64,000 nt of DNA from an uncultured Woeseiaceae bacterium (GTDB lineage Bacteria > Pseudomonadota > Gammaproteobacteria > Steroidobacterales > Woeseiaceae): contig CABXJW010000001.1 in the NCBI GenBank assembly GCA_902512585.1, positions 8,300-72,299 of the forward strand, written 5' to 3'. The notes beneath the pieces were generated by a model, which was not told the origin of the DNA, did no database searches, and saw nothing but the letters and a program-made list of their open reading frames with translations. Positions 2,078 through 54,169 of this stretch are shown piece after piece (the stretch's first letter is position 1; each line of letters begins with the position of its first letter). The translations under genes were made by a program, and so were the position numbers.

Positions 2078-3262
2078 TCATGAGGCAACTTCGAATAATG
2101 AAGCAGCACCTTGGCCACCTCCAATACACATTGTACAGACCACATACTTGGCACCTCGCCGCTTGCCTTCTATTAGAGCATGACCAACCATTCTTGCCCC
2201 GGACATTCCATAGGGATGACCAATGGAAATAGCGCCTCCATTTACATTTAATTTTTCATTTGGGATTCCCAATCTATCGCGACAATATATTACCTGAACA
2301 GCAAATGCCTCATTGAGCTCCCAAAGATCAATATCATCCATTGTTAAACCAGTTTTTTCTAATAATTTTGGTACTGCAAATACTGGACCAATACCCATCT
2401 CATCAGGATTACATCCCACTACTGCAGTGGCACGATAATATCCCAATGGTTCAATTCCCCTTTGTTTTGCTACTTCTGCCGCCATCACTACGGATGCAGA
2501 TGCACCATCAGATAGTTGACTGGCATTACCAGCAGTAATGAAACCACCTTCTCTAACTGTCTTTAACCCCTCTAAACCTTCAAGGCTTGTCTCTGGACGA
2601 TTCCCTTCATCCTTATTTAGCGTCACCTCTTTGAAGCTTATTTTTCCCGTATCGCGATCCATTAAACCCATGTTAGATGATAATGGTGCAATTTCTGCAT
2701 CATACTTACCAGCAGTTTGCGCTAATGCCGTTCTTTGTTGACTTTGCAAAGCATAAGCATCTTGACTTTGTCTGCTAATATTATAGCGCTTAGCTACCAC
2801 TTCAGCTGTATCTAACATAAGCATATAAATATGCTTATGTTTAGCGGTAAGGTTTTTATCAACCACCCTGTGCGTATTCGCGTGTTCATTCTGAACCAGG
2901 CTGATTGACTCCAAACCGCCAGCAACCATAATGTCATGTTCGCCTGTCATTATAGATTTTGATGCAGTCGCTATGGCCATCATGCCAGAAGAACATTGGC
3001 GATCTATGGTCATTCCTGCTGTGGTAATTGGTAGATCTCCAGATAAAGCGCATAATCTTGCTATATTCTGACTTTGCGTACCTTGTGGCATGCCACAGCC
3101 CATAATTACATCCTCAACAGATTCAGGATCAATATTAGCTCTGGCGACCGCATGCTGAATAGCATGCCCACCCATAGTTGGGGCGTCAGTATTATTATAA
3201 GCACCGCGATAGGCTCTCCCTATGGGTGTTCTAGCAGTCGATACAATTACCGCTTCACGCAT
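2078..3262 (-). CDS. Acetyl-CoA C-acyltransferase (thiolase)
   Basis: 394 aa. [21 protein letters not shown]-terminus, active-site [13 protein letters not shown], and C-terminal CIGGGQGAA thiolase signature. Confidence 0.9.
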
Positions 3263-3277
3263 GACTTTTCCTCATAT

Positions 3278-4201
3278 TTAGTTTCTCAATTTTTTGTTTA
3301 AATTTAATCCTAAATTCTTAGCGCCTTGAATAGCAAATTTTTCAGTTTGCCTTGCTCCATTCTGAGTTTCTTCCATTCTTTCTTCATTAATTATAGATTG
3401 CCAATGTTCTGCCACCCCTTCTGCTGATAAATTTTCTGGTAGAAGGTTTATTCCTTCAGTTTCAAAGCCTTTATAAACATCAAAACTACCACCACCAGCC
3501 CCCAAAATAACTCTACTTGGTGCATCCTTACTGCATAAAAAAACCACTCCAGGACTTACCGCCTCAGGTGATAATAAATCAAAAACAGGTTCCGGAAATA
3601 AACCCTTTGTCATCTCCGTTCCTGCCGCGGGCGCAAGACAATTAATATTTATATTATACTTCATTCCTTCTAGATGTAGGGTGTTCATCATTCCAACCAT
3701 TGCCATCTTTGCTGCGCCATAATTTGTTTGGCCAAAGTTTCCATAAAGTCCTGAACTAGATGAGGTTAAGACAATCCTGCCATATGCTTGTTCCCGCATT
3801 ATTTCCCATACTGCTTTAGCACAATACATTGAACCCATTAGATGGACATCTATTACTAAACGCATATCTTCAGGGGTCATTTTTAAAAAAGTTTTATCTC
3901 TTAATATCCCAGCATTATTGACTAAAATATCTATTCTTCCCCATTTATCCATAGCCTGCGAAATCATATTTTGCACTTGATCAAAATTTGAAACATCAGC
4001 ACCATTAGCGCATGCATCACCACCTTGCTTGATAATATGATCTACCACTGATTGAGCATTTTCTGATACACCCTCACCTTCAGCTAAATCATTAACAATT
4101 ACCTTGGCGCCTCTCTCAGCAAGCGCTAGCGCATGAGCCCTTCCTAAACCTCTTCCTGCACCTGTAACTATAGCAACCTGACCATCTAAACTAATTTTCA
4201 T
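3278..4201 (-). CDS. Short-chain dehydrogenase resembling the (3R)-hydroxyacyl-CoA dehydrogenase domain of multifunctional enzyme type 2
   Basis: VAIVTGAGRGLGRAHALALAERGAKVIVNDL, NNAGILRD and SSSSGLYGNFGQTNYGAAK closely follow the HSD17B4/MFE-2 dehydrogenase pattern. I start at the internal ATG 4201 (MKISLDGQ), which has a GGGAA RBS; the ORF-track start 4249 adds 16 unlikely residues. Confidence 0.85.
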   Translation of the reverse strand: MKISLDGQVAIVTGAGRGLGRAHALALAERGAKVIVNDLAEGEGVSENAQSVVDHIIKQGGDACANGADVSNFDQVQNMISQAMDKWGRIDILVNNAGILRDKTFLKMTPEDMRLVIDVHLMGSMYCAKAVWEIMREQAYGRIVLTSSSSGLYGNFGQTNYGAAKMAMVGMMNTLHLEGMKYNININCLAPAAGTEMTKGLFPEPVFDLLSPEAVSPGVVFLCSKDAPSRVILGAGGGSFDVYKGFETEGINLLPENLSAEGVAEHWQSIINEERMEETQNGARQTEKFAIQGAKNLGLNLNKKLRN

Positions 4202-4294
4202 CTCAATTCCCTTCATTAAAAAAACATTATTTTGATAACCTATTATCAACTTGCAGCGATATAAAAATCTTTATACTGTCAGATTTTTCTTATT

Positions 4295-6316
4295 TTATTT
4301 TTGCCTTCTTCTCTTCTTCTTTCTAGCTTTAGATTCTGCTCCTACTTGTTTGCGCGCTGGTAATTTAAATACGGTAGCTAAATTAGAAAAATCATCTAAC
4401 AAATGAGGTATTGCCATTGCTGCAACAAATTCATCTTGAAAAGATTCCTCCACTGCTGTTTCAATTTTCTCTATCAATCGAACTTCATTTTCTAACTTAT
4501 TCCTACTTTTTTTATCTAGAAGCGTGATTCTTGCTCCAGTTCCTGCAGCATTTCCTGCTGAAGATATCTGGCTAATCTTACAATCAGGTAATAAGCCAAG
4601 AGCTATGGCATATTTTACATCTATATGTGCACCAAATGCGCCTGCTAAACGAATACGATCAACTTTTTTAATATTCAAATGAGTCATCAATAACTTTATT
4701 CCAGCATATAGTGCAGCTTTAGCTAGCTGAATTGCTCTAATATCATTTTGCGTGATTTTTATGTCTTGCTCGCCATAATGGAGAATATATGAAAAAGTTC
4801 GGCCATCTTTAACTATTCTTTCCGATCTTAAAGCAGCTTCTTCTGTAATTTTTCCATCCTGATCCACAATACCACTTATGAAAAGTTCAGCGACGATCTC
4901 TATAATTCCTGAACCACAAATTCCAGTAATGCCACCCTTAGGAAGATTGGCCTCAAAAGCTTCCTCATTTGACCAAAAATCACATCCAATTATCTTAAAT
5001 TTAGGCTCAAGAGAATTGGGATTAATTCGGGCACGTTCGATTGCTCCTGGGGCTGCTCGTTGACCAGAGCTAATTTGGGCCCCCTCGAAAGCTGGGCCTG
5101 TAGGGCTTGAAGCGGCTAATAATCTATCTTTATTACCTAAAATAATTTCGGCATTGGTGCCAATATCTACTATCAATGAAATTTCATTTTTATTGTATGG
5201 CTCTTCAGCAAGGACAACAGCAGCTGCATCCGCACCTACATGACCAGCCACACAAGGCAAAACATAAAGATAACATCCTGGATTTACATCAATATTTAGA
5301 TCTACTGCTTTAATGGTGGTACTGGTATCAGTTGCCAACGCGAAAGGAGCTGCGCCCAATTCTATGGGATTAATACCGAGAACTAAATGATGCATAATTG
5401 GATTACCTACCAAGGTAATCTCACATATATCAGTCTTTTCTATATTATTTTCACTGACAATATTTGAAATTATTTCATTAATTGCTTCTCTGACAACCTC
5501 AATTAAATCTCTCTCGCCCCCGTCATTCATCATGATATAGGAAACTCGACTCATTAGATCTTCGCCAAAACGAATCTGTGGATTCATCTTTCCAGAACTA
5601 CCAATTACCTCGCCTGAACTTAGATCACACAAATGAGCAGCGATGGTGGTTGATCCGACATCAATGGCTACACCGTACAAAGTCTCTTTAAATCCCGACC
5701 AAATAGATATAATTTCATTATTATTTCGAACTGCAACTGTAATTTCCCAGTTACCTTTACGCAATATCTTTTGCAAAGATTTAATCACATTTACAGAGCA
5801 TAGTAAGTTATTCAAATTCCACTGAATACTGAGAGCTTCGAGCAAGCGAGATAAATCACCAGTTCCTATATGCATATCAGGTTCATCTACTTTTACATAA
5901 TAAGCCTTAACAACTGGGTCTATATCTATATCATGAGCTTCATTTTTCTTTCTAATAACCTGTTGATGAACCTGAGAATCGGCAGGTACATCGATTACCA
6001 CATCAGAAAGAAGCAATGCTTGACAACTCAATCGACGGCCATCAACTAGATTTCTTCTTTCTCCAAATTTACTCTCTGCCTCATTAAATTTAGATACGGA
6101 CTTCAATGTTGATTGAATATTATGCTTTGAAAATTCACCTTCACTAACTTCAATTTGACAGCGCCCACATAGCGCTCTCCCTCCACACACCGAGTCAAGA
6201 TCAACACCAAGTTGTCTGGCAGCATCTAACAGAGAAGTTCCTTGATCAAAAACTCCTCTTTTCCCTGAAGGTGTAAAAACAACCTTACATTGATTAGCTA
6301 TATTAGTTGAGGGCAT
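4295..6316 (-). CDS. [2Fe-2S] ferredoxin fused to an ASKHA-fold domain: RACo-like reductive activase of corrinoid proteins (DUF4445 type)
   Basis: 673 aa. N-terminal plant-type ferredoxin cysteines (SVCGGRALCGRCQ...RLSCQA). Central GVAIDVGSTTIAAHLCDL...NPQIRFGEDLMSRVSY and IVDIGTNAEI ATPase motifs. Unusual polybasic C-terminus KARKKKRRRQK. Confidence 0.8.
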   Translation of the reverse strand: MPSTNIANQCKVVFTPSGKRGVFDQGTSLLDAARQLGVDLDSVCGGRALCGRCQIEVSEGEFSKHNIQSTLKSVSKFNEAESKFGERRNLVDGRRLSCQALLLSDVVIDVPADSQVHQQVIRKKNEAHDIDIDPVVKAYYVKVDEPDMHIGTGDLSRLLEALSIQWNLNNLLCSVNVIKSLQKILRKGNWEITVAVRNNNEIISIWSGFKETLYGVAIDVGSTTIAAHLCDLSSGEVIGSSGKMNPQIRFGEDLMSRVSYIMMNDGGERDLIEVVREAINEIISNIVSENNIEKTDICEITLVGNPIMHHLVLGINPIELGAAPFALATDTSTTIKAVDLNIDVNPGCYLYVLPCVAGHVGADAAAVVLAEEPYNKNEISLIVDIGTNAEIILGNKDRLLAASSPTGPAFEGAQISSGQRAAPGAIERARINPNSLEPKFKIIGCDFWSNEEAFEANLPKGGITGICGSGIIEIVAELFISGIVDQDGKITEEAALRSERIVKDGRTFSYILHYGEQDIKITQNDIRAIQLAKAALYAGIKLLMTHLNIKKVDRIRLAGAFGAHIDVKYAIALGLLPDCKISQISSAGNAAGTGARITLLDKKSRNKLENEVRLIEKIETAVEESFQDEFVAAMAIPHLLDDFSNLATVFKLPARKQVGAESKARKKKRRRQK

Positions 6317-6947
6317 TAGTATTCCATTGGATTATGTTTTCTTTAATGTCTTTTTCGAAAAAAGTAAGGCCTGTATACTCATACGAATAACCCAATCCTA
6401 AATATTTTGTAAGCAATCGAGTCATTTGTTGAAGCTTAGTTGAATGTGTCTGTGACAAATATACAAGCTTCTCATAATTTTTAAAATAATCTTTAATTAA
6501 TTCAGGATGACCAATTAAGTCCAATCCTTCTTTAACTAATCGATCAAAGTGACGTGTAAGAAAATCAGTCAAGCAAAAAGTACCAAGACAAGATCTTGAT
6601 GTTGTTAAAAAATTTTCACTTCCAGAAAAAAACTCATAACAATGCGCACCAGGTAACCTAGTTAAACCATATTTCTCAAGAATCATATCCAATAATCCGC
6701 CAGTCCCACAATCAGCATAGGCAATGAATATATTTTTATATTTCAGTATAGCGGTCTCTACAGCAATAGGTATTTCATCAGGACGATCATGCAATTTCGC
6801 GGGAAGGCATTGTATATTCATATATCGCCATTTATTCAACTGCTTTAGAAATTGCAATTCTCTGGCTATTGCACCACAAGCTATGACTAGAGATGGCTCA
6901 ATTTCTAAACTCATTTGTTTTTGTTTTATGTCGTTATTTTTATCCAT
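6303..6947 (-). CDS. DUF1638-family protein (usual companion of corrinoid methyltransferase/activase genes)
   Basis: LVIACGAIAREL...LHDRPDEIP...IFIAYADCGTGG...RLPGAHCYEFF matches my memory of the DUF1638 pattern. It overlaps the activase gene by 14 nt. The start is ambiguous: ATG at 6947 (chosen) or TTG at 6968. Confidence 0.65.
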   Translation of the reverse strand: MDKNNDIKQKQMSLEIEPSLVIACGAIARELQFLKQLNKWRYMNIQCLPAKLHDRPDEIPIAVETAILKYKNIFIAYADCGTGGLLDMILEKYGLTRLPGAHCYEFFSGSENFLTTSRSCLGTFCLTDFLTRHFDRLVKEGLDLIGHPELIKDYFKNYEKLVYLSQTHSTKLQQMTRLLTKYLGLGYSYEYTGLTFFEKDIKENIIQWNTNALN

Positions 6948-7055
6948 GATTCCATATTGCGATATCAAATTTTGCTTAGAAATGGTTATTAATATAGTTT
7001 ATTAAACAAACAAGAAAGTCTAAAGAAATTACACTACAAATTTTTACTCTTAAAA

Positions 7056-8354
7056 ATGATAATAAACAAATATAAAATATCAATAATTCTATTATTTTGT
7101 TCTCTTGCGGCCTGTGAAAAAAGTACAAAAGTGTCGGGTGTAGATAATAGCTTTTCATCTGCGTCATCGGTTCAGGAGGTAAAAGAACAATTCAAACGAC
7201 TGCCAGATGATGATATCTGGTGGACTACAAATGGGTCAGATATGGCCTGGAATTTTAAAAACCTTCATCGAATATTTCCAACTGTGAACGTATATCGTAA
7301 TGGTCCTGTTAAGGAATTAGCGCATAAACCTTCTCAAGAAATTTCATCTTACATAGTCAATACAAACTCAGGAGCAATGTCGTTCGATGACTATCTCAAA
7401 AGCGATGAATCCACTGCAATGGGGGTTGTCATTAGTCACAAAGGTGAAATCATTTTTGAATCTTACCCAAGAATGCAGGAATATGAGAAACCCATTTATT
7501 GGTCTGTCGCAAAAATTTTACCAGCAACATTGATCAGGATTTATGAAGAAAGAGGCTTAATTGATGTAAATCTGCCAGTTGAAACTTACATCAATGAATT
7601 AAGTGGCACTAGTTTGGCAGGAATCTCTGTAAGAAATATTTTAGATATGGCGACTGGTCTAGAGTGCTCTGATAATTATTACAATAAAGATAGTTGTTAC
7701 TATTTATATTCAATGTCAATCGGTGATGGATTTCGGACTAATGCAGCTGCCGACAATCCTTATGATTTTGTCAAAAATACTGCAATTAAACGAGAAATAG
7801 AAGCTGGTAAAAAATATTCATATTCTGGCCTGAATACCTTTATTCTCTCTTGGTTGGTTGAAGAATTAACAGATATGCCTTTTCAAGATGCACTAACACA
7901 AGAAATCTGGTTTCACATTGGAGCAGAGTCAGATGCGTCATTTTTAGCACCTAGAAATGGAATCGCCATGACTCACGGTGGCTTCATGGCTAAAATGCGA
8001 GATATGATCCGATTTGGGATACTTTTTACGCCTAGTTATAAAGTTGTGAGTGATAAGAAAATTATATCTGATTCACATATTGATCTAATTCTTAATGAAG
8101 GTAATCCGGAGTTACTACAAATTTTAAATAGACCTGGCTTTGAGGAAAGTGGAATAAAACATAACATCTATCAATGGGATCTTGTTTATGACAATGATGA
8201 TTTCTTTAAAGGTGGTTGGGCTGGTCAAGGCTTATTAATTAATCCAACTCGAGATGTAGTTGCTGTATTTACTGGCTACAAAAAGAATGAGGAACATCAT
8301 GCGATGGAAATGAGAGGTATTATAAGAGAGGTGCTCAATGGGGTATTTGATTAA
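7056..8354 (+). CDS. Lipoprotein serine hydrolase of the beta-lactamase / penicillin-binding-fold family
   Basis: 432 aa. Lipobox LFCSLAAC at the N-terminus, S-x-x-K motif (WSVAKIL), and a Y-S-x-like second motif (KYSYSGLN). Confidence 0.75.
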   Translation: MIINKYKISIILLFCSLAACEKSTKVSGVDNSFSSASSVQEVKEQFKRLPDDDIWWTTNGSDMAWNFKNLHRIFPTVNVYRNGPVKELAHKPSQEISSYIVNTNSGAMSFDDYLKSDESTAMGVVISHKGEIIFESYPRMQEYEKPIYWSVAKILPATLIRIYEERGLIDVNLPVETYINELSGTSLAGISVRNILDMATGLECSDNYYNKDSCYYLYSMSIGDGFRTNAAADNPYDFVKNTAIKREIEAGKKYSYSGLNTFILSWLVEELTDMPFQDALTQEIWFHIGAESDASFLAPRNGIAMTHGGFMAKMRDMIRFGILFTPSYKVVSDKKIISDSHIDLILNEGNPELLQILNRPGFEESGIKHNIYQWDLVYDNDDFFKGGWAGQGLLINPTRDVVAVFTGYKKNEEHHAMEMRGIIREVLNGVFD

Positions 8355-9634
8355 TGAAAATACAACCAGAGCAACATACAAACTCTTATTATGCTGCCAC
8401 AATCGAAACTTCAACTGACTACCCCAAATTAAAGGGACATCAAAATACAGATATATGTATTGTAGGTGCTGGCTTTAGTGGTATCTCTACTGGATTACAT
8501 TTATCCGAATTAGGTTACAAGGTCACCTTAGTGGAAGCCAATAAAGTTGGTTGGGGAGCCTCCGGAAGAAATGGCGGTGAAATTATTGGTGGCTTTTCTG
8601 GTGATGAACTAATGGCGAAAAAATATGCCACAAAACACAGAGATCTAATTTGGAAAATGCGCTGGGAAGGTAATGATATTATTCGTAATAAGGTGCAGCA
8701 ATATTCAATAAATTGTGATTTAAAATGGGGCTACCTAGATGTCGCGATAAAGAAAAAACATTTGGATATGATGCAATCATGGTCTGAAGATATGCGTTCG
8801 CATGACTACCCTCATGAGGTTAATTTATTCTCAAAAGAAAAAACGGCTAATCTTATTGGGACAAATAAATATATTGGCAGCTTATTAAATATGGGAAATG
8901 GGCATATCCATCCATTGAATCTTTGCATTGGGGAAGCAAGGGCAGCAGAATCACTAGGTGCTTCAATCTATGAACAGTCTCCCGTGATTAAAATAGAAAA
9001 ATCAACCAAACCAACGGTTTTTACAGAACAAGGTAGTATCTCTGCAAATGCTCTATTGCTTGCCGGAAATGCATACCACCATTTTGATAAAAAAATGCGT
9101 AATTTTATTATTCCTGTAAACAGTTTTGTCATTGTTACAGAACCACTTTCAGATGAGGTCATTCAAAAAATTAATCCGCGAGACCTGGCTGTTTGTGACC
9201 CTAATTACATCCTGGAATACTTCAGATTAACTGGTGACAAGCGATTATTATTTGGTAGTCGACTAAATTACCATGGTAATAATGAGTCTTATATCAAGAA
9301 TGGACTGCGCAAGAAAATGTTACGTTTATACCCGTGCCTTAGTGAAATAGGCATAGATTATGCTTGGACGGGTAAAATTGCAGTTACAGTGAATCATATT
9401 CCGCAACTAGGAAAGTTAGCGCCTAATATTTATTATAGCCAGGGCTACTCAGGGCATGGAGTAACAACAACTCACTTAGCTGGCAAAATTATGTCAGAAG
9501 CAATCTCTGGAACATTAGAGCGTTTTGATTTATTTAATAAAATTAAACCAATTGCAGTCCCAGGTACCCACTTTTTCCAGAAACCTTTATTGTCTCTCGG
9601 TGTTATGTTTTATAAACTCAAAGATCTTTTATGA
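8354..9634 (+). CDS. FAD-dependent amine oxidoreductase (DAO family, gamma-glutamylputrescine oxidase-like)
   Basis: 426 aa. Dinucleotide-binding motif DICIVGAGFSGISTGLHLSELG. DAO-family length and C-terminal GYSGHGV motif. Its ATG overlaps the upstream TAA (TAATG). Confidence 0.8.
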   Translation: MKIQPEQHTNSYYAATIETSTDYPKLKGHQNTDICIVGAGFSGISTGLHLSELGYKVTLVEANKVGWGASGRNGGEIIGGFSGDELMAKKYATKHRDLIWKMRWEGNDIIRNKVQQYSINCDLKWGYLDVAIKKKHLDMMQSWSEDMRSHDYPHEVNLFSKEKTANLIGTNKYIGSLLNMGNGHIHPLNLCIGEARAAESLGASIYEQSPVIKIEKSTKPTVFTEQGSISANALLLAGNAYHHFDKKMRNFIIPVNSFVIVTEPLSDEVIQKINPRDLAVCDPNYILEYFRLTGDKRLLFGSRLNYHGNNESYIKNGLRKKMLRLYPCLSEIGIDYAWTGKIAVTVNHIPQLGKLAPNIYYSQGYSGHGVTTTHLAGKIMSEAISGTLERFDLFNKIKPIAVPGTHFFQKPLLSLGVMFYKLKDLL

Positions 9635-22067: not shown

Positions 22068-22089
22068 GTAAATGAAAGGAAGCTATATA

Positions 22090-22995
22090 ATGGAAAATAA
22101 AATTACCTTAATAGATGGTGCAATGGGAACCGAAATAAGGGCTAGAGGTTTTGAGGTACCATCACACACTAATTCAATATGGTCAGCTCAAGCTCTGATG
22201 GACAATCCTAAGGTAATTGTGGATATCCATAAAGACTATATTCTTGCTGGGGCAGAGATCATAACTACCAATAATTATGCCGTTACCCAGAATTTATTGA
22301 GAAGAGAGAACCTCAGAAACAAACTGGAAGATCTGACTCTACTATCAATTGATTTAGCGAAAGAGGCACGAAAAATCACTAATAGTAATATCAAGATTGC
22401 AGCATCACTCCCACCTCTGGATACTAGTTATCGTCCCGATCTTGTGGGAGATATTGACTCACTGATGAGGAAATACTCTGAAATTGTAGAAATTGTAAAG
22501 AATAACGTAGATCTCATTATGATAGAAACTATGTCATCTGCAGCAGAAGCAATTGGTGCATTAAAAGCTTGTCAAGATACCGGTATGGAAGTTTGGCTTG
22601 GATACACACTTCATGGAGTTAGAAAGAATACACTTCCCAGTGGTGAATCACTCACCGATGCATTAACTGCTGTCAAAGAATATGACATTGATGCATTCTT
22701 GATTAATTGCTGTAGTGCGAATATTACTGCTGAAGCGATGAAAGTTTTAGCAGCTACAGTTGATAAGCCTTTTGGTGGATACGCTAATTCCGAGATTATA
22801 GATCATATTGAACGCGGCGATGATTCTCTTGATAATGCTGAAGATCTCCAGAGAGAATCTCGGCAATCAATTAATGCAGATCAATATTCAATGATTGTTA
22901 AAGAATGGATTGAATCTGGAGCAACAATTGTCGGTGGCTGTTGCAGAACTGGGCCAAAACACATAGAGAAATTGTATCAAATGATAAATAATTAA
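22090..22995 (+). CDS. mmuM: Homocysteine S-methyltransferase (MmuM/BHMT-type Hcy-binding domain)
   Basis: LIDGAMGTEI N-terminus and zinc-ligand cysteines (LINCCS, GGCCRTGPKHI). I use the ATG at 22090, preceded by AAGGAAG; the ATG at 22072 lies only 5 nt after the terminator T-run. Confidence 0.8.
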   Translation: MENKITLIDGAMGTEIRARGFEVPSHTNSIWSAQALMDNPKVIVDIHKDYILAGAEIITTNNYAVTQNLLRRENLRNKLEDLTLLSIDLAKEARKITNSNIKIAASLPPLDTSYRPDLVGDIDSLMRKYSEIVEIVKNNVDLIMIETMSSAAEAIGALKACQDTGMEVWLGYTLHGVRKNTLPSGESLTDALTAVKEYDIDAFLINCCSANITAEAMKVLAATVDKPFGGYANSEIIDHIERGDDSLDNAEDLQRESRQSINADQYSMIVKEWIESGATIVGGCCRTGPKHIEKLYQMINN

Positions 22996-44152: not shown

Positions 44153-44677
44153 ATGGAGAAGACCATGAAATCCCTACTAGCTTTTAATTTTCAGGAATGG
44201 ATTGAGAAACATCGACACCTTCTTAAACCACCCGTATGCAATCAACAAATATTTGAAGATAATGACTTTATAGTAATGGTAGTTGGTGGACCCAACTCAA
44301 GAACAGATTATCATTATGATCCTGGTCCAGAATTCTTCTACCAACTGGAAGGTGACATGCTGCTCAAAACCATTCAAGATGGCAAACGAGTGGAGACGGT
44401 AATCAAAGAAGGTGAGATTTTACTCTTACCACCTACAGTTCCACATTCTCCGCAGAGATATGCGGACACTGTTGGGCTAGTAGTTGAGAGAAAGCGCTTA
44501 GACACAGAATTAGATGGTTTTTTATGGTTCTGTGAAAAATGTGATAATAAATTATATGAAGAATATCTGTATATCAATGACATTGTTGGTCAATTACCTC
44601 CAGTTTTCGATCGTTTTTACAGTTCTGAAGCCAACCGTACTTGCAAAAAGTGTGGCGAAATAATGGCTGCAGAATAA
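44153..44677 (+). CDS. nbaC: 3-hydroxyanthranilate 3,4-dioxygenase
   Basis: Cupin motifs GGPNSRTDYHYDPGPEFFYQLEGDM and LLPPTVPHSPQR. C-terminal rubredoxin-like CEKC...CKKC site, as in bacterial HAO enzymes. Confidence 0.85.
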   Translation: MEKTMKSLLAFNFQEWIEKHRHLLKPPVCNQQIFEDNDFIVMVVGGPNSRTDYHYDPGPEFFYQLEGDMLLKTIQDGKRVETVIKEGEILLLPPTVPHSPQRYADTVGLVVERKRLDTELDGFLWFCEKCDNKLYEEYLYINDIVGQLPPVFDRFYSSEANRTCKKCGEIMAAE

Positions 44678-44688
44678 CGAGAAAACTG

Positions 44689-45702
44689 ATGTTAAAGATA
44701 GATATTCATACTCACATATTGCCTAAAAGTTGGCCAGATCTAAAAGAGCGCTATGGTTATGGTGGTTTCATGCAACTAGAGCACTGTGGTTCTGGCTGCT
44801 CCAAGATGATGATGGATGGCAAGCATTTTAGAGACGTAGCGCCAAATTGTTGGGATCCTCAGGTGAGGTTGGAAGAATGTCATCAAACAGCTGTGGATGT
44901 TCAAGTTTTGTCCACCGTTCCAGTCATGTTCAACTATTGGGCCAAACCAAAGGATACAGCTGATCTGGCAATGATTTTAAATGATCACATTGCTGAGATT
45001 GTCACTAATCATCCCAAAAGATTTATTGGTCTTGCGACGCTCCCTATGCAAGATATTAATCTATCAGTTAAAGAGTTGGAGCGCTGTGTTAATACTAAAG
45101 GTATGGCTGGCGTTCAAATAGGTTCTCATATTAATGGGTGGAACCTTGATGACCCGCGGATTTTTCCAATTTTAGAAGCAGCGCAAGATTTAGACACTGC
45201 TATTTTTATTCATCCCTGGGATATGCTGGGTAGTGACCGAATGAATCTCTATTGGTTACCATGGCTAGTGGGTATGCCAGCGGAAACCGCTTTATCTATT
45301 TGCTCGATGATCTTTGGTGGCGTTTTCGAAAAATTACCTGATCTAAGAATTGCTTTTGCTCATGGAGGTGGTGCATTCCCGAGTATTATAGGAAGGTTAG
45401 AACATGGTTATAATGTTCGTCCTGATATTGTGGCAACCCATAATCAAAAGAATCCCCGAGATTACTTAGGAAAATTTTACGTAGATTCGCTGGTTCATGA
45501 ACCAGCTGTTTTAAATTATATGATTGATCTCTTTGGCGCAAACTGTATCGCTCTCGGGAGTGATTACCCGTTTCCACTCGGTGAAGACAAACCAGGAGAG
45601 ATGATTAAAAATATGCAATTAGATGACCAAACAAACCAATGGTTATATGCTGATACCGCTTTAAGATGGCTCAATCTCAATCGAAAGGACTATGAAAGGT
45701 GA
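44689..45702 (+). CDS. Amidohydrolase-2-family decarboxylase, 2-amino-3-carboxymuconate-6-semialdehyde decarboxylase-like
   Basis: IDIHTHILP metal-binding start, HPWD, AHGGGAFP and LGSDYPFPLGE motifs. The cluster context is the kynurenine pathway. I use ATG 44689; the ORF-track TTG 44641 overlaps the upstream gene. Confidence 0.75.
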   Translation: MLKIDIHTHILPKSWPDLKERYGYGGFMQLEHCGSGCSKMMMDGKHFRDVAPNCWDPQVRLEECHQTAVDVQVLSTVPVMFNYWAKPKDTADLAMILNDHIAEIVTNHPKRFIGLATLPMQDINLSVKELERCVNTKGMAGVQIGSHINGWNLDDPRIFPILEAAQDLDTAIFIHPWDMLGSDRMNLYWLPWLVGMPAETALSICSMIFGGVFEKLPDLRIAFAHGGGAFPSIIGRLEHGYNVRPDIVATHNQKNPRDYLGKFYVDSLVHEPAVLNYMIDLFGANCIALGSDYPFPLGEDKPGEMIKNMQLDDQTNQWLYADTALRWLNLNRKDYER

Positions 45703-46982
45703 ACAATTTCAACTTCGAAACAAATCGAACCTATGCTCAATCACTAGACAGTCAGGATGATCTGGCTCACTATCGCTCTGAATTTTTATTTCCAGAAGAT
45801 AAGAATGGCTATTCGTGCGTATATCTTTGTGGTAACTCACTTGGATTACAACCAAAAAAAGTTAAGCAGTACCTTAATGAAGAATTGGATGACTGGTCAA
45901 AATATGGAGTACATGGTCATACTAAAGCTGGTCGTCCCTGGCTAACCTACCATCTGCAAGCGAGGTCAGGATTCGCAGAGCTAACCGGAAGTCTAGAACA
46001 TGAGGTAATTGCTATGAATACCCTCACGGTTAATTTGCACATGTTAATGACTACTTTCTATCGACCAAATCAGAAGCGCTTTAAAATTCTCATTGAATCA
46101 ACCGCTTTTCCCTCAGACAGATTTGCTGCTGAATCACAAATTCGTTTACATGGATTTGACCCTAAGGAGGCATTGATTGAATGGCAACCAAAAGATGATG
46201 AATTATTCATAGATGACCTACAACAAATAATAGCTGCTCAAGGTGATGAGATTGCTTTAATACTTGTACCGGGTATTCAATATTACAGTGGCCAAGTTCT
46301 ACCTATGCAAGAAATTTGTCAATTGGCAAAGAGTGCGGGTTGCAATGTTGGTCTTGATTTAGCACATGCTATAGGAAATATAGAACTTGAGCTACATAAG
46401 TGGGCTCCTGATTTTGCTGCTTGGTGTACTTATAAGTACCTTAATGGTGGGCCTGGATCAGTTGGTGGAGCATTTATCCATGAAGCACATCATGGTAGTG
46501 CCGGTAATGAGCAACTACTTGGATGGTGGAGTAATGACCTTGAAAGTCGTTTCAAAATGGGGACAGAATTCGTCGCAGCCAAAGATGCAGATCTCTGGCA
46601 AGTCAGTAATCCACCGGTTTTCTCATTAACCCCAGTAATCACCTCTTTACATATGTTCCATGAAGCATCCTTTAATAAACTGCGTAAAAAATCTATTCAG
46701 TTAACCAATTATATGGATTTTTTAATTCAAGATTCATTTAAAGGCAGAATAGAATCTATCACCCCACCACTCAATCGAGGTTGTCAATTATCTCTAGTAA
46801 TCCTCGATAAAAGTCTCAATGGTAAAGCTATATTTAATTCCTTAACAGAAAAAAATGTAATTGGTGATTGGCGTGAACCCAATGTCATTCGGATGGCGCC
46901 CGCTCCGTTATACAACTCTTTTGAAGATGTTTTTGAGTTTGTAGAGCGCCTCAAAGAAGCGATTACTGAAAATAATATTTGA
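45699..46982 (+). CDS. kynU: Kynureninase
   Basis: 427 aa. PLP aminotransferase class V fold, YKYLNGGPGSVGG motif (PLP lysine region). GTG start overlapping the upstream TGA (GTGA). Confidence 0.9.
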   Translation: MNNFNFETNRTYAQSLDSQDDLAHYRSEFLFPEDKNGYSCVYLCGNSLGLQPKKVKQYLNEELDDWSKYGVHGHTKAGRPWLTYHLQARSGFAELTGSLEHEVIAMNTLTVNLHMLMTTFYRPNQKRFKILIESTAFPSDRFAAESQIRLHGFDPKEALIEWQPKDDELFIDDLQQIIAAQGDEIALILVPGIQYYSGQVLPMQEICQLAKSAGCNVGLDLAHAIGNIELELHKWAPDFAAWCTYKYLNGGPGSVGGAFIHEAHHGSAGNEQLLGWWSNDLESRFKMGTEFVAAKDADLWQVSNPPVFSLTPVITSLHMFHEASFNKLRKKSIQLTNYMDFLIQDSFKGRIESITPPLNRGCQLSLVILDKSLNGKAIFNSLTEKNVIGDWREPNVIRMAPAPLYNSFEDVFEFVERLKEAITENNI

Positions 46983-48331
46983 TGAGCTCAGCATCAATAA
47001 AAATCCTTGGCTCGGGCCTCTGTGGTAGTTTGCTTTCGATCATCTTAGCAAAAAGAGGATATGCAGTAGAGATTTATGAATCTCGGAGTGACCCCAGAAA
47101 ACTGAGTCAAGCGGCAGGAAGATCAATTAATTTAGCAATGTCCTCCAGAGGTATCAATGCGCTCAAGTATGCTGGTATCTTCGATCAAATAAAACCCCTT
47201 CTTATCCCAATGACAGGACGAATGTTGCATTTTAAAAATGGCGACAAAGAGCTCCAACCATATGGACAAAAAGAAGATGAAGTTATTTACTCAGTATCAC
47301 GTTTTAATCTCAACCAGATTTTGATCGAAACTGCTGAAAAAAAATATCATGTTGATATCAATTTTGAACATTCAGTTAAGTCTTATGATCCAGAAAATGC
47401 CAAGATTCAAATGCACTCACCAAAAAAAGAGTTTTTCCTGGAGGCGCAAAAAATATTAGTGGCTGATGGAGCTGGCTCAGTGATTCGTAAGTCCTTTAAT
47501 GATAGAGCACCAATCATGCCAAGCGAATCTATTTTACCGCACAGCTATAAGGAGCTCACCATACCCGCAAATGATGATGGTAGCTTTCAACTGGAAAAAA
47601 ACGCCCTCCATGTTTGGCCACGGGGTCAATTTATGCTCATTGCACTCCCCAACCCTGCTGGCGATTTTACCTTAACGTTATTCATGCCAACAATGGGTAA
47701 AGATAGTTTTGCCGAATTATCCACAGATGCAGCTGTAACAGATTTCTTTGATCGTCACTTTGCTTCTGCCGTTCCACTCTTGCCAAATCTAATCCACGAA
47801 TTTAAAAATAATCCGACGGGAATATTAGGTACAGTAAGGTGTCGGCATTGGCATCAAGATGATAAATTACTTTTAATCGGTGATGCAGCTCACGCCTTGG
47901 TGCCCTTTCATGCCCAAGGAATGAACTTTGCTTTTGACGATTGCGTTGAATTAGATAAGGTTATTGGTCAACACGAACATAATTGGCTAGAGATATTCCA
48001 AAATTTCGAAGCTAATCAATTTGACAATGCCACTGCAATACAGGAGATGGCTTTAGATAATTATATTGAAATGCGCGATGGTGTTCTTGATCCAAAATTT
48101 GCACTAAGAAAAGAACTTTCCTTTGAATTAGAAAAACGGTTACCCAATCAATTTATTCCTCGATACTCAATGGTCATGTTTCATGAGAAAATTCCATACG
48201 CTGTCTCTTATCAACGAGGTGAAATACAAAAGAAATTACTCGCAGAGCTCACTATGGATGCTGAAAAACTGGAGGAGATAGACCTAAATTATGCTGAAAA
48301 AGTAGTTGCTACAAAATTAGCGCCGCTCTAG
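46982..48331 (+). CDS. kmo: Kynurenine 3-monooxygenase
   Basis: ILGSGLCGSLLSIILAKRG FAD motif, ADGAGS and GDAAHALVPFHAQGMN motifs. The ATG overlaps the kynU TGA by 1 nt. Confidence 0.85.
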   Translation: MSSASIKILGSGLCGSLLSIILAKRGYAVEIYESRSDPRKLSQAAGRSINLAMSSRGINALKYAGIFDQIKPLLIPMTGRMLHFKNGDKELQPYGQKEDEVIYSVSRFNLNQILIETAEKKYHVDINFEHSVKSYDPENAKIQMHSPKKEFFLEAQKILVADGAGSVIRKSFNDRAPIMPSESILPHSYKELTIPANDDGSFQLEKNALHVWPRGQFMLIALPNPAGDFTLTLFMPTMGKDSFAELSTDAAVTDFFDRHFASAVPLLPNLIHEFKNNPTGILGTVRCRHWHQDDKLLLIGDAAHALVPFHAQGMNFAFDDCVELDKVIGQHEHNWLEIFQNFEANQFDNATAIQEMALDNYIEMRDGVLDPKFALRKELSFELEKRLPNQFIPRYSMVMFHEKIPYAVSYQRGEIQKKLLAELTMDAEKLEEIDLNYAEKVVATKLAPL

Positions 48332-50521: not shown

Positions 50522-53500
50522 TTAATCTAATGTAGCAACAACCTCACCATGAATTACTGATGGTTTTCCATCATTGAATAAACCAGTAGTCGGTATAAGA
50601 CCGATTGAGCCGGCATTATCCTCGCCATTCATGTCCTTTGGTCCAAGCATCTGGATATCACTAAATGGTGGCAAATCTTCCGCAGTCTTGGAATAGCTTA
50701 ACGTACCGAGTGCCGCATCCTTTTTGGCCAACCATTGTTCACCCTCTAATGCTTTCACTTTATAGGTGGTATCCGAGCCTTTTTTGGTTAACACAGGATC
50801 AACACCATTATATGCTTCAATTGCAAAGCGTTGTACATAGCGTAAGTTATCATTCCATTCTCCATCATAAAATTCACCTAATGCTTCACCGGTAAGCACA
50901 TTGATTACTTGACCTGGTATACCCCAGAGCTCACCAAAACCACCGAACTCAAGTCTTACGTTCTTGCCGGCATCTTTTGTATAAGCGGTTGCATCATCTG
51001 GCACTGCATAGTAAAGAGTTTCTGGTCTCGCGAAATTCACATAATTGCCAGTGGCTGTATCTTTAGCATATTTCTTTCTTTGCCATTCTGACGCACCAAA
51101 CTCAAGCTCATACCAAGTGGTCGGACCTGTCCCTTCCCAAAAGGCATCCTCACAATAACGTGTTGCATTAGCACTAAAGACCGGATGCGTATCACGATAT
51201 TTATTGGTATCACTTAACGGTTTGGAATTATCAGACCGATTGCATTCTAATTTTGCTAATTCAGTAGCAATTTCAGCATCTGTTCCACCCAGCATTCGGC
51301 CTGTACGAATTCCCCAGGCCAATTCTTCAGTATAATATTCCTGAGGAATATTCTTGAAATTTGCTGTGCTGACATCGTTTTCTGTGATAGTGCTAGCAAA
51401 GCCCATGACATTACCTGACCCATCTTTAATACCCAAACCATCTGGAGTATAAGTCACGACATCTGTGGCTAAAATCCCAGGATAATGATATCCCTGTTGA
51501 TCTCCTGACTTAACATACTGCACAGTCGTTGGTATATGGGGGCTCACCACGGTACCAGGACTCCCATTAAGTGCTTTTGCCGCATCCGCAGTCGCATTTA
51601 TCGTAGCTGCACTGGTGCAGAAAAAGACACATTTGAATTTCGCTGGATACTCAGAAGGAGTTAATTCTTGGCGAGACTCAACCTGAATACCATAAGTTGC
51701 GGTATTATCTGTTGGATTTTGGAAAGTTTCAGTTGGGATATCATAGCCATTGCCGGTATCCGGTGACCAAGCCCAAAATCCACGTTCTTCCGTCCAAGCA
51801 TCTGCTGCATTTGCATCAGGTGCTGATTTCACCGTCAAGGTAACTCCGAAAGCATCCGCCGCATCTGATTGACTTTCAGCGGTATAAACATCCAAAGCAC
51901 CAAAATCAATATTGACATTCACCTGCTGTCCATCAGTAAAGAAGCTCGCAAATGAGGCTGTCATTGATTTTAGATCTTTTAAGATCGAGTTAAATTGAAC
52001 CTCAAATGCCGCATCGCCATCACTATTCATTGTGAAGGTTTCTGAGATAGCTTGTGTCAAGTTGACACTCACATTTGCAGCAGTACCGCCATCGTTATAA
52101 ATTCCACTGATAGTCGTTCCTTGCGCAATTGACATAGTCATAGCTGAGCCAGTTGATGACCAGGTGAATGGAAGAGTAAATGTGACTTGATCTTCTGTGC
52201 CACTTCGCGTGCTATCATCACCATGGGTTAATTTTACCGCGATATTGGTAGAACCAGAGCCACCACTATCTGGCAGGTTACCAAAATAACCCTTAACTTT
52301 AATAGGTCTGGCATTCGCTGTACCGTTAATTAATCCCAGGAGATTTTCAAGATCAATACCGGGTGCATCTCCAGTATCCTTACCCCATGGATAACCACCA
52401 AATGTTCCACTATTGACACCACCTAACCACCAGTACTGCACGTTTTCAGCCGCACTCGCACTCAGTGTATCACCTTGTAGATAATCTGTGACTTTGATCC
52501 GCCAGGTATTAAGTTGTAAACCATTCATCGCCGGTTGTACTTGCGTATAGGGATCCTCATAGGTCACTGACATTGCCGCTAAGTATTCGGTATTAGTGAA
52601 CGTAATCGGTGTGCCTAATGTGGTTTCATTCCAACCACTGGACCAATCAATGGACTTAGTAAAGGTCCAGGTTGCATTGGCTTTACTATAACTACCTTCA
52701 TACTCACGCTCAGCCGCAGGAAAACCAAGACTTTGATAAGCACTTCCCCATCGATCATCATTCCCGTTGATCCAGCTTACCATGGTCAATTTATCTAAAT
52801 CATTTAAAGCAAGATAACTCTTAGTATATTTAGTGACTCGCTGGTTAGCAGCAGCAATTTTGATTTGTAACGCAGGACCTGTCTCACCAGCAAACTGCTC
52901 TTTCGTCCAAACCGTATCAGCATCCCATAGACCTGGATTTTCCCAATCATCCACATAGATATTCCAGTAATCTGCCCAGCCAAATAGCTCGACATCATTG
53001 CCATCCGCATCTTCAACTGTGGCATTCATCGGGAATGCCGCTTGGCCAGATAACGTGGCTCTGGTCCCATCCACATTATAAACGCCATAGCGGTGAATAT
53101 TTTTCTGAGCATCAGAGTCCTTCAATGAATAACAAGTCTCATCAGTAGTCAGGCCAGAATTTGAATCAGGCAAAGTTACCGCTGTGCTGCCTGGTATAAA
53201 AAAGCCTTCCGCACTCATACTTGAATCTTCAAAATCCAATGTTGCAGCTGAAATTACTTTACTGCAATAGACCGCAGCATCACCATTATCGATTGAAAAT
53301 CCAGACATAACTTCCATTTCAACCCATTCCTGATTAGGGTAAGATCCCACCTCATAACCAGTAGTATCCACTGTAACCCCTTCAATCTTGTCGCCTGAAT
53401 AAGATAATACAGTTCTTAAGGGCGCATCATTCATACGATAATCAACATAGGTAATTTGTCCACCTGAGGCTTTGATCCTGGCCCCACCTGCTGAATTTCC

Positions 53501-54169
53501 AGCTAGCATCAAACACCCTGCTTCTAATTTATCTTCGGTACTGCCTGGAAACTCTGGGCCACACATATCTTGATTTTCACCCAGCGCGAATGACATTTGC
53601 ATATCAAATAAACCAAACTGAGAAGTCGCCGATGGCGGTGATGTAGTCGTCATTTTAATGTAAACCGTTATGGCTGGTGAATAAGCATCTGTCATTGTCG
53701 CTAACATCGCTGGCGACATATCCTTTGCCCAATCTTCCAATTCTGGCGCCAATTCAACCCAAGCATTAGCAATTTGTGGTGAACTATTATTAGCACGGGT
53801 TACGTTTGCATAGGCCACTGTGACTGTTTTCGCAGTACTGCCGGTAGTTCCCGATTCAGATTTTTTTGTGCTTTGTGCACTTTGTGCCGATTTTGGTTTT
53901 GCTGCTGCTGCATCCGATGAACTCGTATCAGCTGATTTGCAGTCATCCTCATACAGAGAGATTTTATAAGGACCGCGATTAACCATTTCAGCAAAGCCCA
54001 TAGCATTCATCATACACATAATGAAATTGACCTCTTCTAGGGCATCATTAGCGGCATTATCAGAGACGAAAAAATCCACTGTATCTGATTCATAAGCAGT
54101 CTGCGCATTAAGTGAAAACGGTAGCCACACTATTAACATTAAAAATATATTTCGTACTAAATTACTCAT
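50522..54169 (-). CDS. Large (1215 aa) secreted protein of unknown function
   Basis: Uninterrupted ORF with AAGAGAG RBS. Sec signal peptide (IVWLPFSLNA/QT). Ser/Ala/Lys-rich linker at aa 79-115. The remainder is acidic and T/S/G/D/N/W-rich with scattered Cys. I recognise no catalytic or sorting motif. Confidence 0.7.
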   Translation of the reverse strand: MSNLVRNIFLMLIVWLPFSLNAQTAYESDTVDFFVSDNAANDALEEVNFIMCMMNAMGFAEMVNRGPYKISLYEDDCKSADTSSSDAAAAKPKSAQSAQSTKKSESGTTGSTAKTVTVAYANVTRANNSSPQIANAWVELAPELEDWAKDMSPAMLATMTDAYSPAITVYIKMTTTSPPSATSQFGLFDMQMSFALGENQDMCGPEFPGSTEDKLEAGCLMLAGNSAGGARIKASGGQITYVDYRMNDAPLRTVLSYSGDKIEGVTVDTTGYEVGSYPNQEWVEMEVMSGFSIDNGDAAVYCSKVISAATLDFEDSSMSAEGFFIPGSTAVTLPDSNSGLTTDETCYSLKDSDAQKNIHRYGVYNVDGTRATLSGQAAFPMNATVEDADGNDVELFGWADYWNIYVDDWENPGLWDADTVWTKEQFAGETGPALQIKIAAANQRVTKYTKSYLALNDLDKLTMVSWINGNDDRWGSAYQSLGFPAAEREYEGSYSKANATWTFTKSIDWSSGWNETTLGTPITFTNTEYLAAMSVTYEDPYTQVQPAMNGLQLNTWRIKVTDYLQGDTLSASAAENVQYWWLGGVNSGTFGGYPWGKDTGDAPGIDLENLLGLINGTANARPIKVKGYFGNLPDSGGSGSTNIAVKLTHGDDSTRSGTEDQVTFTLPFTWSSTGSAMTMSIAQGTTISGIYNDGGTAANVSVNLTQAISETFTMNSDGDAAFEVQFNSILKDLKSMTASFASFFTDGQQVNVNIDFGALDVYTAESQSDAADAFGVTLTVKSAPDANAADAWTEERGFWAWSPDTGNGYDIPTETFQNPTDNTATYGIQVESRQELTPSEYPAKFKCVFFCTSAATINATADAAKALNGSPGTVVSPHIPTTVQYVKSGDQQGYHYPGILATDVVTYTPDGLGIKDGSGNVMGFASTITENDVSTANFKNIPQEYYTEELAWGIRTGRMLGGTDAEIATELAKLECNRSDNSKPLSDTNKYRDTHPVFSANATRYCEDAFWEGTGPTTWYELEFGASEWQRKKYAKDTATGNYVNFARPETLYYAVPDDATAYTKDAGKNVRLEFGGFGELWGIPGQVINVLTGEALGEFYDGEWNDNLRYVQRFAIEAYNGVDPVLTKKGSDTTYKVKALEGEQWLAKKDAALGTLSYSKTAEDLPPFSDIQMLGPKDMNGEDNAGSIGLIPTTGLFNDGKPSVIHGEVVATLD

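Follow-up and report, generated by a model that had tools for sequence, protein, structure and literature searches.

A RamA-like corrinoid reductive activase and a DUF1638 protein, encoded by overlapping genes of an uncultured Woeseiaceae bacterium, are probably the reactivation module of an aerobic MtgBCD/split methionine synthase system that has become stranded, with the activase serving a client encoded elsewhere. The genes were studied within a stretch of 64,000 nucleotides, referred to here as the window, in which they are followed by genes of beta-oxidation type. This odd neighbourhood is most likely the remnant of a lost methyl-transfer cluster and not a new pathway. In relatives of higher GC content the pair is flanked by MtgC, PF13769, MtgD, MetF2 and MttB, and comparison of gene order shows all of these to be gone here. 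The pair itself appears ordinary, a known RamA-like/DUF1638 module stranded by cluster decay in a streamlined marine lineage.

The activase gene (4295-6316, minus strand; 673 aa) was identified as a RACo/RamA-like family member (COG3894, DUF4445) by Pfam, PDB 3ZYY and NCBIfam matches, and shares 14 nt (6303-6316) with the DUF1638 gene (6303-6968, minus strand; Pfam PF07796), the longest open reading frame of which encodes 221 aa. Divergent from the latter are genes for a beta-lactamase-fold, NylB-like serine hydrolase (7056-8354, plus strand; Pfam) and a DAO-family FAD oxidase (8354-9634, plus strand; Pfam, NCBIfam). Homologues of both occur at a corrinoid gene cluster binned as Nitrosopumilus (L006), that of the hydrolase (52% identical) directly 5' of the corrinoid protein and that of the oxidase (45% identical) flanking the cluster. 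Downstream of the activase, also on the minus strand, lie an MFE-2-type (3R)-hydroxyacyl-CoA dehydrogenase of the SDR family (3278-4201 or 3278-4249), an acetyl-CoA C-acyltransferase (thiolase; 2078-3262), an MDR-family NAD(P)H oxidoreductase of the PIG3/quinone-reductase-like type (1074-2051; Pfam, NCBIfam) and a MaoC-like (R)-specific enoyl-CoA hydratase (592-1050; Pfam, 84.6 bits), separated by gaps of 93 (or 45), 15, 26 and 23 nt. The SDR, which probably starts at ATG 4201 (MKISLDG), was recognised by Pfam and has as its best PDB match 2ET6, the (3R)-hydroxyacyl-CoA dehydrogenase of MFE-2 (E 5e-112), with 1ZBQ and 1GZ6 also matching, while the thiolase, besides its Pfam match, scored 618 bits against NCBIfam NF005494 (cut-off 615). 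The SDR, thiolase and MaoC proteins are each homologous to characterised enzymes, and the genes represent an (R)-specific beta-oxidation-type set. The open reading frame list and Pfam searches bear out the layout described in an earlier, sequence-only reading of this DNA, including the 14-nt overlap, the divergent upstream genes, and the order and spacing of the four downstream genes. Two tRNAs were the only matches in an Rfam scan, and no riboswitch was found by that search.

Pfam divides the activase into a [2Fe-2S] ferredoxin domain (Fer2, aa 23-101; 6014-6250), a linker (RACo_linker, 93 bits; 5684-5941), a middle domain (Raco_middle, 169 bits; 5201-5677) and an ASKHA ATPase domain (RACo_C_ter, 298 bits; 4400-5185), all on the minus strand. 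Residues 9-639 form a full-length match to RACo of Carboxydothermus hydrogenoformans (PDB 3ZYY, E 1e-106), in which the four cysteine ligands (VCGG, LCGRC, LSCQ) and the phosphate-binding motifs DVGSTT and DIGTNAE align, and its earlier assignment as a DUF4445/RACo homologue is upheld by this alignment and by the domain architecture. It shares with RACo (PDB 3ZYY, 4C1N; AcsV) the four-domain build, the [2Fe-2S] ligands and the ASKHA motifs, but the AcsV corrinoid activation protein, although its top NCBIfam match, scored only 436 bits (equivalog cut-off 800), the context of an acetyl-CoA pathway is missing, and its polybasic tail of some 34 residues has no counterpart in RACo. The ASKHA/DUF4445 core is likewise homologous to that of archaeal RamA, the methylamine methyltransferase corrinoid protein reductive activase (TIGR04270), and ATP-dependent reduction of Co(II) to Co(I) is proposed for both, but the score against TIGR04270 was 119 bits (cut-off 500). 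Archaeal RamA has C-terminal 4Fe-4S clusters, whereas the 2Fe-2S domain of the window protein is N-terminal.

The tail KARKKKRRRQK (4298-4330, minus strand), which lies past the end of the 3ZYY alignment, had been regarded as unexpected in this family. It is present as described, but Arg/Lys-rich tails occur in all activase orthologues, those of canonical clusters and of Roseovarius included, and are conserved across the whole proteobacterial orthogroup; the tail was therefore rejected as a lineage-specific oddity.

The activase gene is expressed, and metatranscriptome contigs cover both it and the DUF1638 gene. It is full length and intact in every clade member examined, and comparison with these relatives gave dN values of 0.135-0.19, similar to those of YchF and neighbouring genes, and dN/dS values of 0.05-0.08, with dS saturated. 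The window copy keeps 251 of 270 orthogroup-invariant columns, and 93-95% of such sites are retained in the comparison, with no acceleration of rate. As judged from these substitution patterns, strong purifying selection continues to act on the activase.

The DUF1638 gene presents a different picture. Its longest reading frame begins at TTG 6968, but ATG 6947 or ATG 6914 is the likelier start; the former gives a protein of 214 aa and is the start annotated in L022, a near-identical strain. The score against PF07796 was 73.6 bits (cut-off 27), compared with 107-112 bits for copies from canonical clusters. The conserved motifs ACGA, DCGTGG, HCYEFF and LTDFLTRHFDRLV are retained, but a cysteine replaces the invariant tyrosine of TFYLTDFL, and in natural populations there are variants frameshifted by deletions, one of 34 nt (6736-6771) and one of 2 nt (6364). 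Among clade relatives the gene is missing in L017, while 21 aa of it are left in L004 and 62 aa, interrupted by an in-frame stop, in L001. The window copy is intact, yet shows signs of relaxed constraint, and the pattern across relatives shows a gene that, to judge from these remnants, is being lost throughout the low-GC clade.

Both families had been said to accompany corrinoid methyltransferase systems as a rule, and this holds in canonical Woeseiaceae clusters. Higher-GC members show the order [MttB]-MtgC-DUF1638-PF13769-[MtgD]-RamA-MetF2-MttB-MttB (L005, L007, L009, L013, L018-L021 and L023-L026, together with L006 and L014, the last belonging to Chromatiales), and these loci have a GC content of 54-58%, against 37% in the window clade. 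The activase in such clusters (e.g. L018, L020, L023) is orthologous to that of the window and 62-67% identical, the DUF1638 protein is orthologous and 45-54% identical, and DUF1638 precedes RamA in both settings. The window differs in being without MtgC, PF13769, MtgD, MetF2 or any MttB, and in having beta-oxidation-type genes after the activase instead of MetF2 and MttB. The derived order, blac/DAO | [DUF1638] RamA-SDR-thiolase-MDR-MaoC, is confined to the low-GC clade, which is pelagic (L001-L004, L008, L016, L017 and L022), where RamA is retained, DUF1638 sometimes, and both adjoin the beta-oxidation-type genes. The sequence-only reading had proposed comparing the neighbourhoods of orthologous pairs, and had itself named a standard corrinoid set beside the pair in relatives, with the present order peculiar to one lineage, as counting against an unusual role; that is what the comparison gave. 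The beta-oxidation neighbourhood is most simply explained as a by-product of deletion or rearrangement, one of which probably produced the present arrangement.

The absence of a corrinoid protein or methyltransferase nearby, remarked on earlier, was confirmed for the whole window. Searches for a corrinoid protein, MttB, a pterin-binding methyltransferase, an MTHFR-like protein and PF13769 found none in the 64 kb by tblastn (1e-5) or by Pfam, applied to listed open reading frames of at least 100 aa (at least 80 aa in the first 14 kb), leaving out short frames inside longer genes, and a near-identical strain had none in the approximately 10 kb that follow MaoC. Genes of this system can be dispersed; at the level of the locus, MtgC (PF02607 plus PF02310) and MtgD (PF00809) gave no match in the window (tblastn with Woeseiaceae queries, threshold 1e-5; Pfam), nor did an MtgB of the MttB family (PF06253), and mtgC, mtgD and mtgB were not detected within about 74 kb. 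A stand-alone protein with a homocysteine S-methyltransferase domain (22072-22995, plus strand; Pfam PF02574), the only one of its kind in the window, was considered as a weak candidate for the homocysteine-binding module (MtgE) of a split methionine synthase. Its best NCBIfam match was the MmuM-type HMT (155 bits, below cut-off), with 76 bits against the BHMT/MtgE-type model, and it is only 25% identical to the MtgE-like protein that adjoins MtgC in the metagenomic locus L030; it is nearer to the MmuM type, and its identification as MtgE was rejected as unsupported.

In aerobic marine bacteria, the cobalamin of the split methionine synthase and of the MtgBCD glycine-betaine methyltransferase is returned to its active state by RamA-like and DUF1638 proteins (PMC5764234, PMC12478193). 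In Phaeobacter inhibens, mutants in the Fer2 plus DUF4445 gene (PGA1_c15200) and the DUF1638 gene (PGA1_c13340) are methionine auxotrophs and show cofitness with the three-part MetH, induction of MtgBCD in Ruegeria pomeroyi is accompanied by that of RamA (SPO2041) and of DUF1638 (SPO2162), and across Alphaproteobacteria the two proteins co-occur almost perfectly (PMC5764234, PMC12478193). The roseobacter proteins have the same two Pfam architectures as the window pair, and also come from aerobic marine proteobacteria. As in the window, the roseobacter activase gene does not lie with that of the corrinoid protein: the locus tags of RamA and its partners are far apart in both P. inhibens and R. 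pomeroyi, DUF1638 lying beside MtgC and RamA elsewhere, and the Roseovarius orthologue (55-57% identical to the window activase, with the polybasic C-terminal tail common to both) has no corrinoid genes within 10 kb. An 'orphan' RamA is therefore normal where the system is dispersed. The systems differ in that the roseobacter DUF1638 gene follows mtgC, whereas that of the window overlaps the activase gene, and in the loss of DUF1638 from sister lineages of the window organism, as against its near-perfect co-occurrence with the activase in Alphaproteobacteria.

The dispersed roseobacter arrangement favours a more specific possibility, that the client is a relocated quaternary-amine/glycine-betaine MttB/MtgBCD system, with a second DUF1638 copy beside the moved MtgC, which would account for the loss of the copy at this locus. 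It is also favoured by the low-GC marine locus L032, an Mtg cluster (MttB-MtgC-PF13769-MetF2-MtgD) with neither RamA nor DUF1638 in the recovered stretch. Relocation nevertheless appears unlikely, as neither protein nor DNA-pattern searches found an MtgC attributable to the window clade. Protein searches with Woeseiaceae and low-GC MtgC queries placed none on known clade contigs among the matches listed; MtgC is 86-94% conserved across taxa, and matches were saturating, with at least 120 found. A codon-biased DNA pattern for low-GC MtgC recovered 13 loci from metagenome contigs, and the low-GC MtgC genes belonged to other organisms. L034, L035, L036 and L039 were rejected as roseobacters of low GC content, their MtgC being 98% identical to that of Paracoccaceae. 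L030 (order MetF-MtgE-MtgC) and L032 were ruled out as loci of the window organism by depth covariation in four metagenomes: the depth of the window organism was 65, 16.7, 10 and 13.7, that of L030-like sequences 2-5, 13.6, 12-14 and 2-6, and that of L032 about 24 in one run, the other three showing no more than scattered matches that were short or fell in conserved regions. Over the window, the runs compared that lack a metagenome label also behaved like metagenomes, and were rejected as single-cell or isolate data. An exact-protein look-up of the window MaoC, for leftward extension, returned no record, and the supplementary genome table of PMC12478193 has no entries for Woeseiaceae. In addition, streamlining (37% GC) makes outright loss of catabolic genes plausible.

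A further explanation is that the activase, with or without DUF1638, was recruited to the CoA-ester pathway of the SDR-thiolase-MDR-MaoC array, where it might provide a pathway enzyme with cob(I)alamin or low-potential electrons, or where the skeleton of a demethylated quaternary amine might be processed. The genes are on the same strand, the short spacer (4202-4294) has no terminator-like fold (z -0.06), and metatranscriptome contigs cross it (4110-4618 and 4201-4815). RamA and the SDR have stayed adjacent while synonymous sites diverged to saturation, and do so in every low-GC clade member examined, and the Roseovarius orphan orthologue is directly downstream of a family III CoA-transferase. 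Co-expression of the activase and CoA-ester genes is thus possible, and transcription may read through from the activase into the SDR array. On the other side, the HemA-to-glucokinase region is syntenic throughout the low-GC clade, so that conserved adjacency is not specific to the activase and the array. TTGATAA-N4-TTATCAA, a perfect palindrome, lies in the spacer (4232-4249), as does a TATCGC...TGATA element that the clade conserves; this operator-like, clade-conserved palindrome suggests that the SDR array is controlled separately, and probably has its own operator. Promoter and terminator consensus scans gave counts at or below shuffle expectation and were uninformative. Pfam, NCBIfam and PDB matches place none of the four array enzymes among known users of cobalamin or corrinoids, the evolution of the activase is neither accelerated nor altered relative to canonical-cluster copies, and in the relatives carrying those clusters it precedes MetF2 and MttB rather than array genes. 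Recruitment is accordingly regarded as very improbable, and the same low standing is given to the broader proposal that RamA outlived the Mtg cluster and DUF1638 through a client, acquired or original, that is not of MtgC type and is perhaps linked to CoA esters. That both genes are functionless relics on the way to loss is scarcely credible: DUF1638 is clearly decaying in the clade and the locus no longer has the partner genes, but the activase is intact in every clade member with its catalytic motifs kept, under the low dN/dS noted above, and appears in metatranscriptomes.

Of the two alternatives offered by the sequence-only reading, the one with more support, for the activase at any rate, is a client encoded elsewhere; the other, an undescribed CoA-ester pathway, or processing of the skeletons of demethylated carnitine- or butyrobetaine-like compounds, found nothing in its favour beyond adjacency and possible read-through. 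For a stranded reactivation module, the expected mechanism follows RACo and RamA. The [2Fe-2S] domain of the activase would accept an electron, while the ASKHA domain, by binding and hydrolysing ATP, would power the uphill step in which protein-bound cob(II)alamin is reduced to cob(I)alamin. The client would be a corrinoid methyltransferase encoded at another locus; the most plausible one is a methionine synthase that is split or has no re-activation domain of its own. The decay of DUF1638 would follow from a role tied to the lost MtgC-type corrinoid protein, and the activase and the SDR array would have no functional coupling.

If the client did prove not to be of MtgC type but tied to the CoA-ester genes, for example through cob(I)alamin or low-potential electrons made for an acyl-CoA-transforming enzyme, DUF4445 activases would gain a physiological role that is new for them. 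In the sister lineages, loss of the neighbouring MtgC goes with repeated loss of DUF1638 and strict retention of the activase, which suggests that DUF1638 is specific to the MtgC-type corrinoid protein and that the activase serves a broader range of clients, methionine synthase being one example. The locus also illustrates that inference from gene neighbourhood can mislead for RamA-like activases.

The activase gene (4295-6316, minus strand) specifies a 673-aa protein with Fer2, RACo_linker, Raco_middle and RACo_C_ter domains, and overlaps by 14 nt the gene for a DUF1638 protein (6303-6968, minus strand). The activase matches Carboxydothermus hydrogenoformans RACo (3ZYY; E 1e-106) over residues 9-639, including all four cysteines that bind the cluster and the phosphate-binding motifs of the ASKHA domain. 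Upstream and divergent are genes for a beta-lactamase-fold hydrolase (7056-8354, plus strand) and a DAO-family oxidase (8354-9634, plus strand), while SDR, thiolase, MDR oxidoreductase and MaoC hydratase genes follow the activase on its own strand. On the domains of the pair, its overlap, the divergent upstream genes and the downstream array with its gap sizes, the ORF map and Pfam agreed with the sequence-only reading. Pfam scans took in the listed window ORFs from 100 aa upwards, with the minimum lowered to 80 aa for the first 14 kb; short ORFs nested in longer genes were excepted. These scans found only housekeeping and other unrelated genes, with no corrinoid, pterin-binding or MttB gene among the ORFs scanned. 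None was detected by tblastn of the window with bona fide relatives, and an Rfam search of the window returned no riboswitch.

The best genome matches to the window were uncultured pelagic Woeseiaceae (Gammaproteobacteria), and the organism is widespread in marine metagenomes. Relatives fell into two classes. Members of the first, Woeseiaceae and allied gammaproteobacteria, carry an activase 62-67% identical to that of the window within a tight co-directional cluster, ordered [MttB]-corrinoid protein-DUF1638-PF13769 small protein-[Pterin_bind methyltransferase]-activase-MTHFR-like-MttB-MttB. The corrinoid protein has B12-binding_2 and B12-binding domains, and the cluster usually adjoins PNPOx-tig-clpP. 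The second class, a low-GC clade (loci L001-L004, L008, L016, L017 and the near-identical strain L022), has activases 71-100% identical to that of the window, and all members share the arrangement Pth-YchF-DAO-hydrolase, then [DUF1638]-activase-SDR-thiolase-MDR-(SDR)-MaoC, with no corrinoid, pterin or MttB gene within 10 kb. GC content is about 37% in the window and close relatives, compared with 54-58% in other Woeseiaceae loci. The sequence-only reading had treated the genes as an orphan pair, but since family-level relatives hold them in a standard corrinoid methyltransferase cluster and the window's arrangement is restricted to the low-GC clade, the orphan arrangement is, judged by gene order, a lineage-specific derivative of that cluster. 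At one canonical locus (L006), the gene immediately before that of the corrinoid protein is a homologue of the window's hydrolase (52% identical), and the cluster has a DAO homologue (45% identical) at its flank, so the divergent neighbours in the window may be survivors of the same ancestral locus.

The PF13769 ('Virulence_fact') protein, of about 104-112 aa, was constant in canonical clusters (L006, L009, L018 and others), its gene following that of DUF1638 and preceding that of the pterin methyltransferase or activase, often with gene overlaps. No role for it is discussed in PMC5764234 or PMC12478193, the two papers recovered by a full-text literature search for DUF1638 and DUF4445.

These papers also place the pair in a known context. 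In Phaeobacter inhibens, the fitness of a Fer2+DUF4445 'RamA-like' gene and of DUF1638 correlates with that of a three-part methionine synthase (PF02574 protein, pterin-binding protein and corrinoid protein), and methionine rescues the mutants (Price et al. 2018, PMC5764234). In Ruegeria pomeroyi, the corrinoid protein MtgC and pterin methyltransferase MtgD act in methionine synthesis with the homocysteine-binding module MtgE and also in glycine-betaine demethylation with the MttB-family MtgB, and RamA (SPO2041) and DUF1638 (SPO2162) are induced together (Mausz et al. 2025, PMC12478193). Activases encoded apart from their partners are thus already on record: the P. inhibens RamA-like gene (c15200) is remote from those for the corrinoid protein and DUF1638 (c13340-c13370) (PMC5764234), and Mtg genes are dispersed in roseobacters, although clustered in many gamma- and deltaproteobacteria (PMC12478193). 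A Roseovarius orthologue (56% identical) is flanked by a family III CoA-transferase and an ABC transporter, and the 20 kb around it contain no corrinoid gene.

The activase is evidently still functional, as judged by its conservation. Its dN against five clade relatives was 0.135-0.19, compared with 0.11-0.14 for YchF and comparable values for neighbouring enzymes, and dN/dS was 0.05-0.08, ratios that are rough because dS was saturated. It retains 251-257 of the 270 alignment columns invariant in canonical and roseobacter copies, the changes being conservative (of the V-to-I and G-to-N kind), and clade activases are no further from roseobacter proteins (55.4% identity) than are canonical Woeseiaceae copies (57.6%). 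The polybasic C-terminal tail, previously regarded as unexpected, proved to be a subfamily trait: every orthologue examined, including canonical-cluster and Roseovarius copies, has an Arg/Lys-rich tail (e.g., KRRGRRGTRRSK, GRKRRRRA, RKRNRRRKG), which relative to RACo 3ZYY is an extension of window-type activases. On this distribution it is uninformative about the orphan state. In some clade activases (P0014, P0016; 772-779 aa), about 75 residues of the linker region are duplicated in tandem, and one cluster of such proteins has 147 member sequences; in activases of 697-704 aa (group 697-721 aa, e.g., P0017 and that of L017), this linker holds a Lys/Asn-rich insertion of 31 aa.

The window, L022, L003 and L016 have an intact DUF1638 gene, but in the low-GC clade DUF1638 is decaying and becoming dispensable. 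Only a 62-aa remnant bearing an in-frame stop survives in L001, and one of 21 aa in L004; L017 lacks the gene, with only about 90-170 nt between hydrolase and activase. Within the window population, some metagenomic and metatranscriptomic contigs show frame-breaking deletions of 34 nt (6736-6771) and 2 nt (6364). The window copy has Cys for the invariant Tyr of the TFYLTDFL motif, which L022 keeps, and it scores 74 bits in Pfam, where canonical copies reach 107-112 bits.

Apart from gene adjacency and possible read-through, nothing supported a link between the pair and an undescribed CoA-ester pathway, as had also been proposed. The closest solved structures to the SDR are (3R)-hydroxyacyl-CoA dehydrogenase domains of MFE-2, the thiolase scores above the cut-off of one NCBIfam equivalog, and none of the four array enzymes belongs to a cobalamin-dependent family. 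The SDR almost certainly starts at ATG 4201 (MKISLDG, kept in relatives), leaving a 93-nt spacer. Read-through from the activase into the array is plausible, since the spacer has no terminator-like fold and metatranscriptome contigs from two runs span it (4110-4618, 4201-4815), although such libraries can contain DNA. An operator-like element in the spacer (TATCGC-N4-GTGATA in relatives; TATCGC...TTGATAA-N4-TTATCAA in the window) is conserved while flanking sequence diverges, which suggests that the array is under its own control. The lasting adjacency of activase and SDR is not specific evidence of coupling, because the whole HemA-to-glucokinase region is syntenic throughout the clade. Co-transcription of the pair with the CoA-ester genes could still occur.

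Searches for the activase's client were made at both protein and DNA level. Near-identical matches saturated the MtgC protein searches, and no clade client was among the matches listed. A search of metagenomes with a codon-biased DNA pattern yielded 13 MtgC loci; the low-GC ones were rejected as the clade's own because they belong to roseobacters, and the others because their depth fails to follow that of the window organism across four metagenomes. The window's PF02574 protein (22072-22995) resembles MmuM more than MtgE, and its candidacy as MtgE was rejected as unsupported. A very low-GC (33%) marine contig (L030, 468-2879) carries MetF, then a 364-aa protein that has a homocysteine-methyltransferase domain and a polybasic tail of its own, then MtgC. 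In this compact form of split methionine synthase mtgE adjoins mtgC, which is unusual, as mtgE is generally at another locus (PMC12478193). Another low-GC (39%) contig (L032, 2466-6830) has MttB-MtgC-PF13769-MetF2-MtgD, but DUF1638 and RamA are both missing from the 8.9 kb recovered. This is the reverse of the window's situation: a cluster lacking its re-activation genes.

Several other features of the window were noted. Positions 1-592, beyond MaoC, include a Lys/Glu-rich 135-aa ORF (137-544) and are common to no relative and no population contig; metagenome contigs cease matching at 593, L022 has an SSF transporter instead, and the segment is an assembly junction or else content peculiar to this strain. 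Co-directional kynurenine-pathway genes (44153-48331, plus strand) for 3-hydroxyanthranilate dioxygenase, an ACMSD-like amidohydrolase, kynureninase and an FAD monooxygenase represent an aerobic tryptophan degradation/NAD route in a gammaproteobacterium. An Ala/Thr/Gly/Ser/Asp-rich 1215-aa ORF (50522-54169, minus strand) with an N-terminal signal-like segment and no Pfam or NCBIfam match lies in the most GC-rich part (0.44). A 353-aa ORF without a Pfam match, followed directly by a DUF6152 protein (60816-62254, minus strand), adjoins two FAD-monooxygenase (UbiH-like) ORFs.

The pair is recognizable by homology as a known cobalamin re-activation module. It is most likely what remained of an MtgBCD-type cluster after that cluster broke up in a streamlined pelagic Woeseiaceae lineage. 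Selection keeps the activase, presumably for a corrinoid methyltransferase encoded elsewhere, and the likeliest client is methionine synthase. Mildly new are only the opposite fates of the two genes, the activase being retained while DUF1638 decays.
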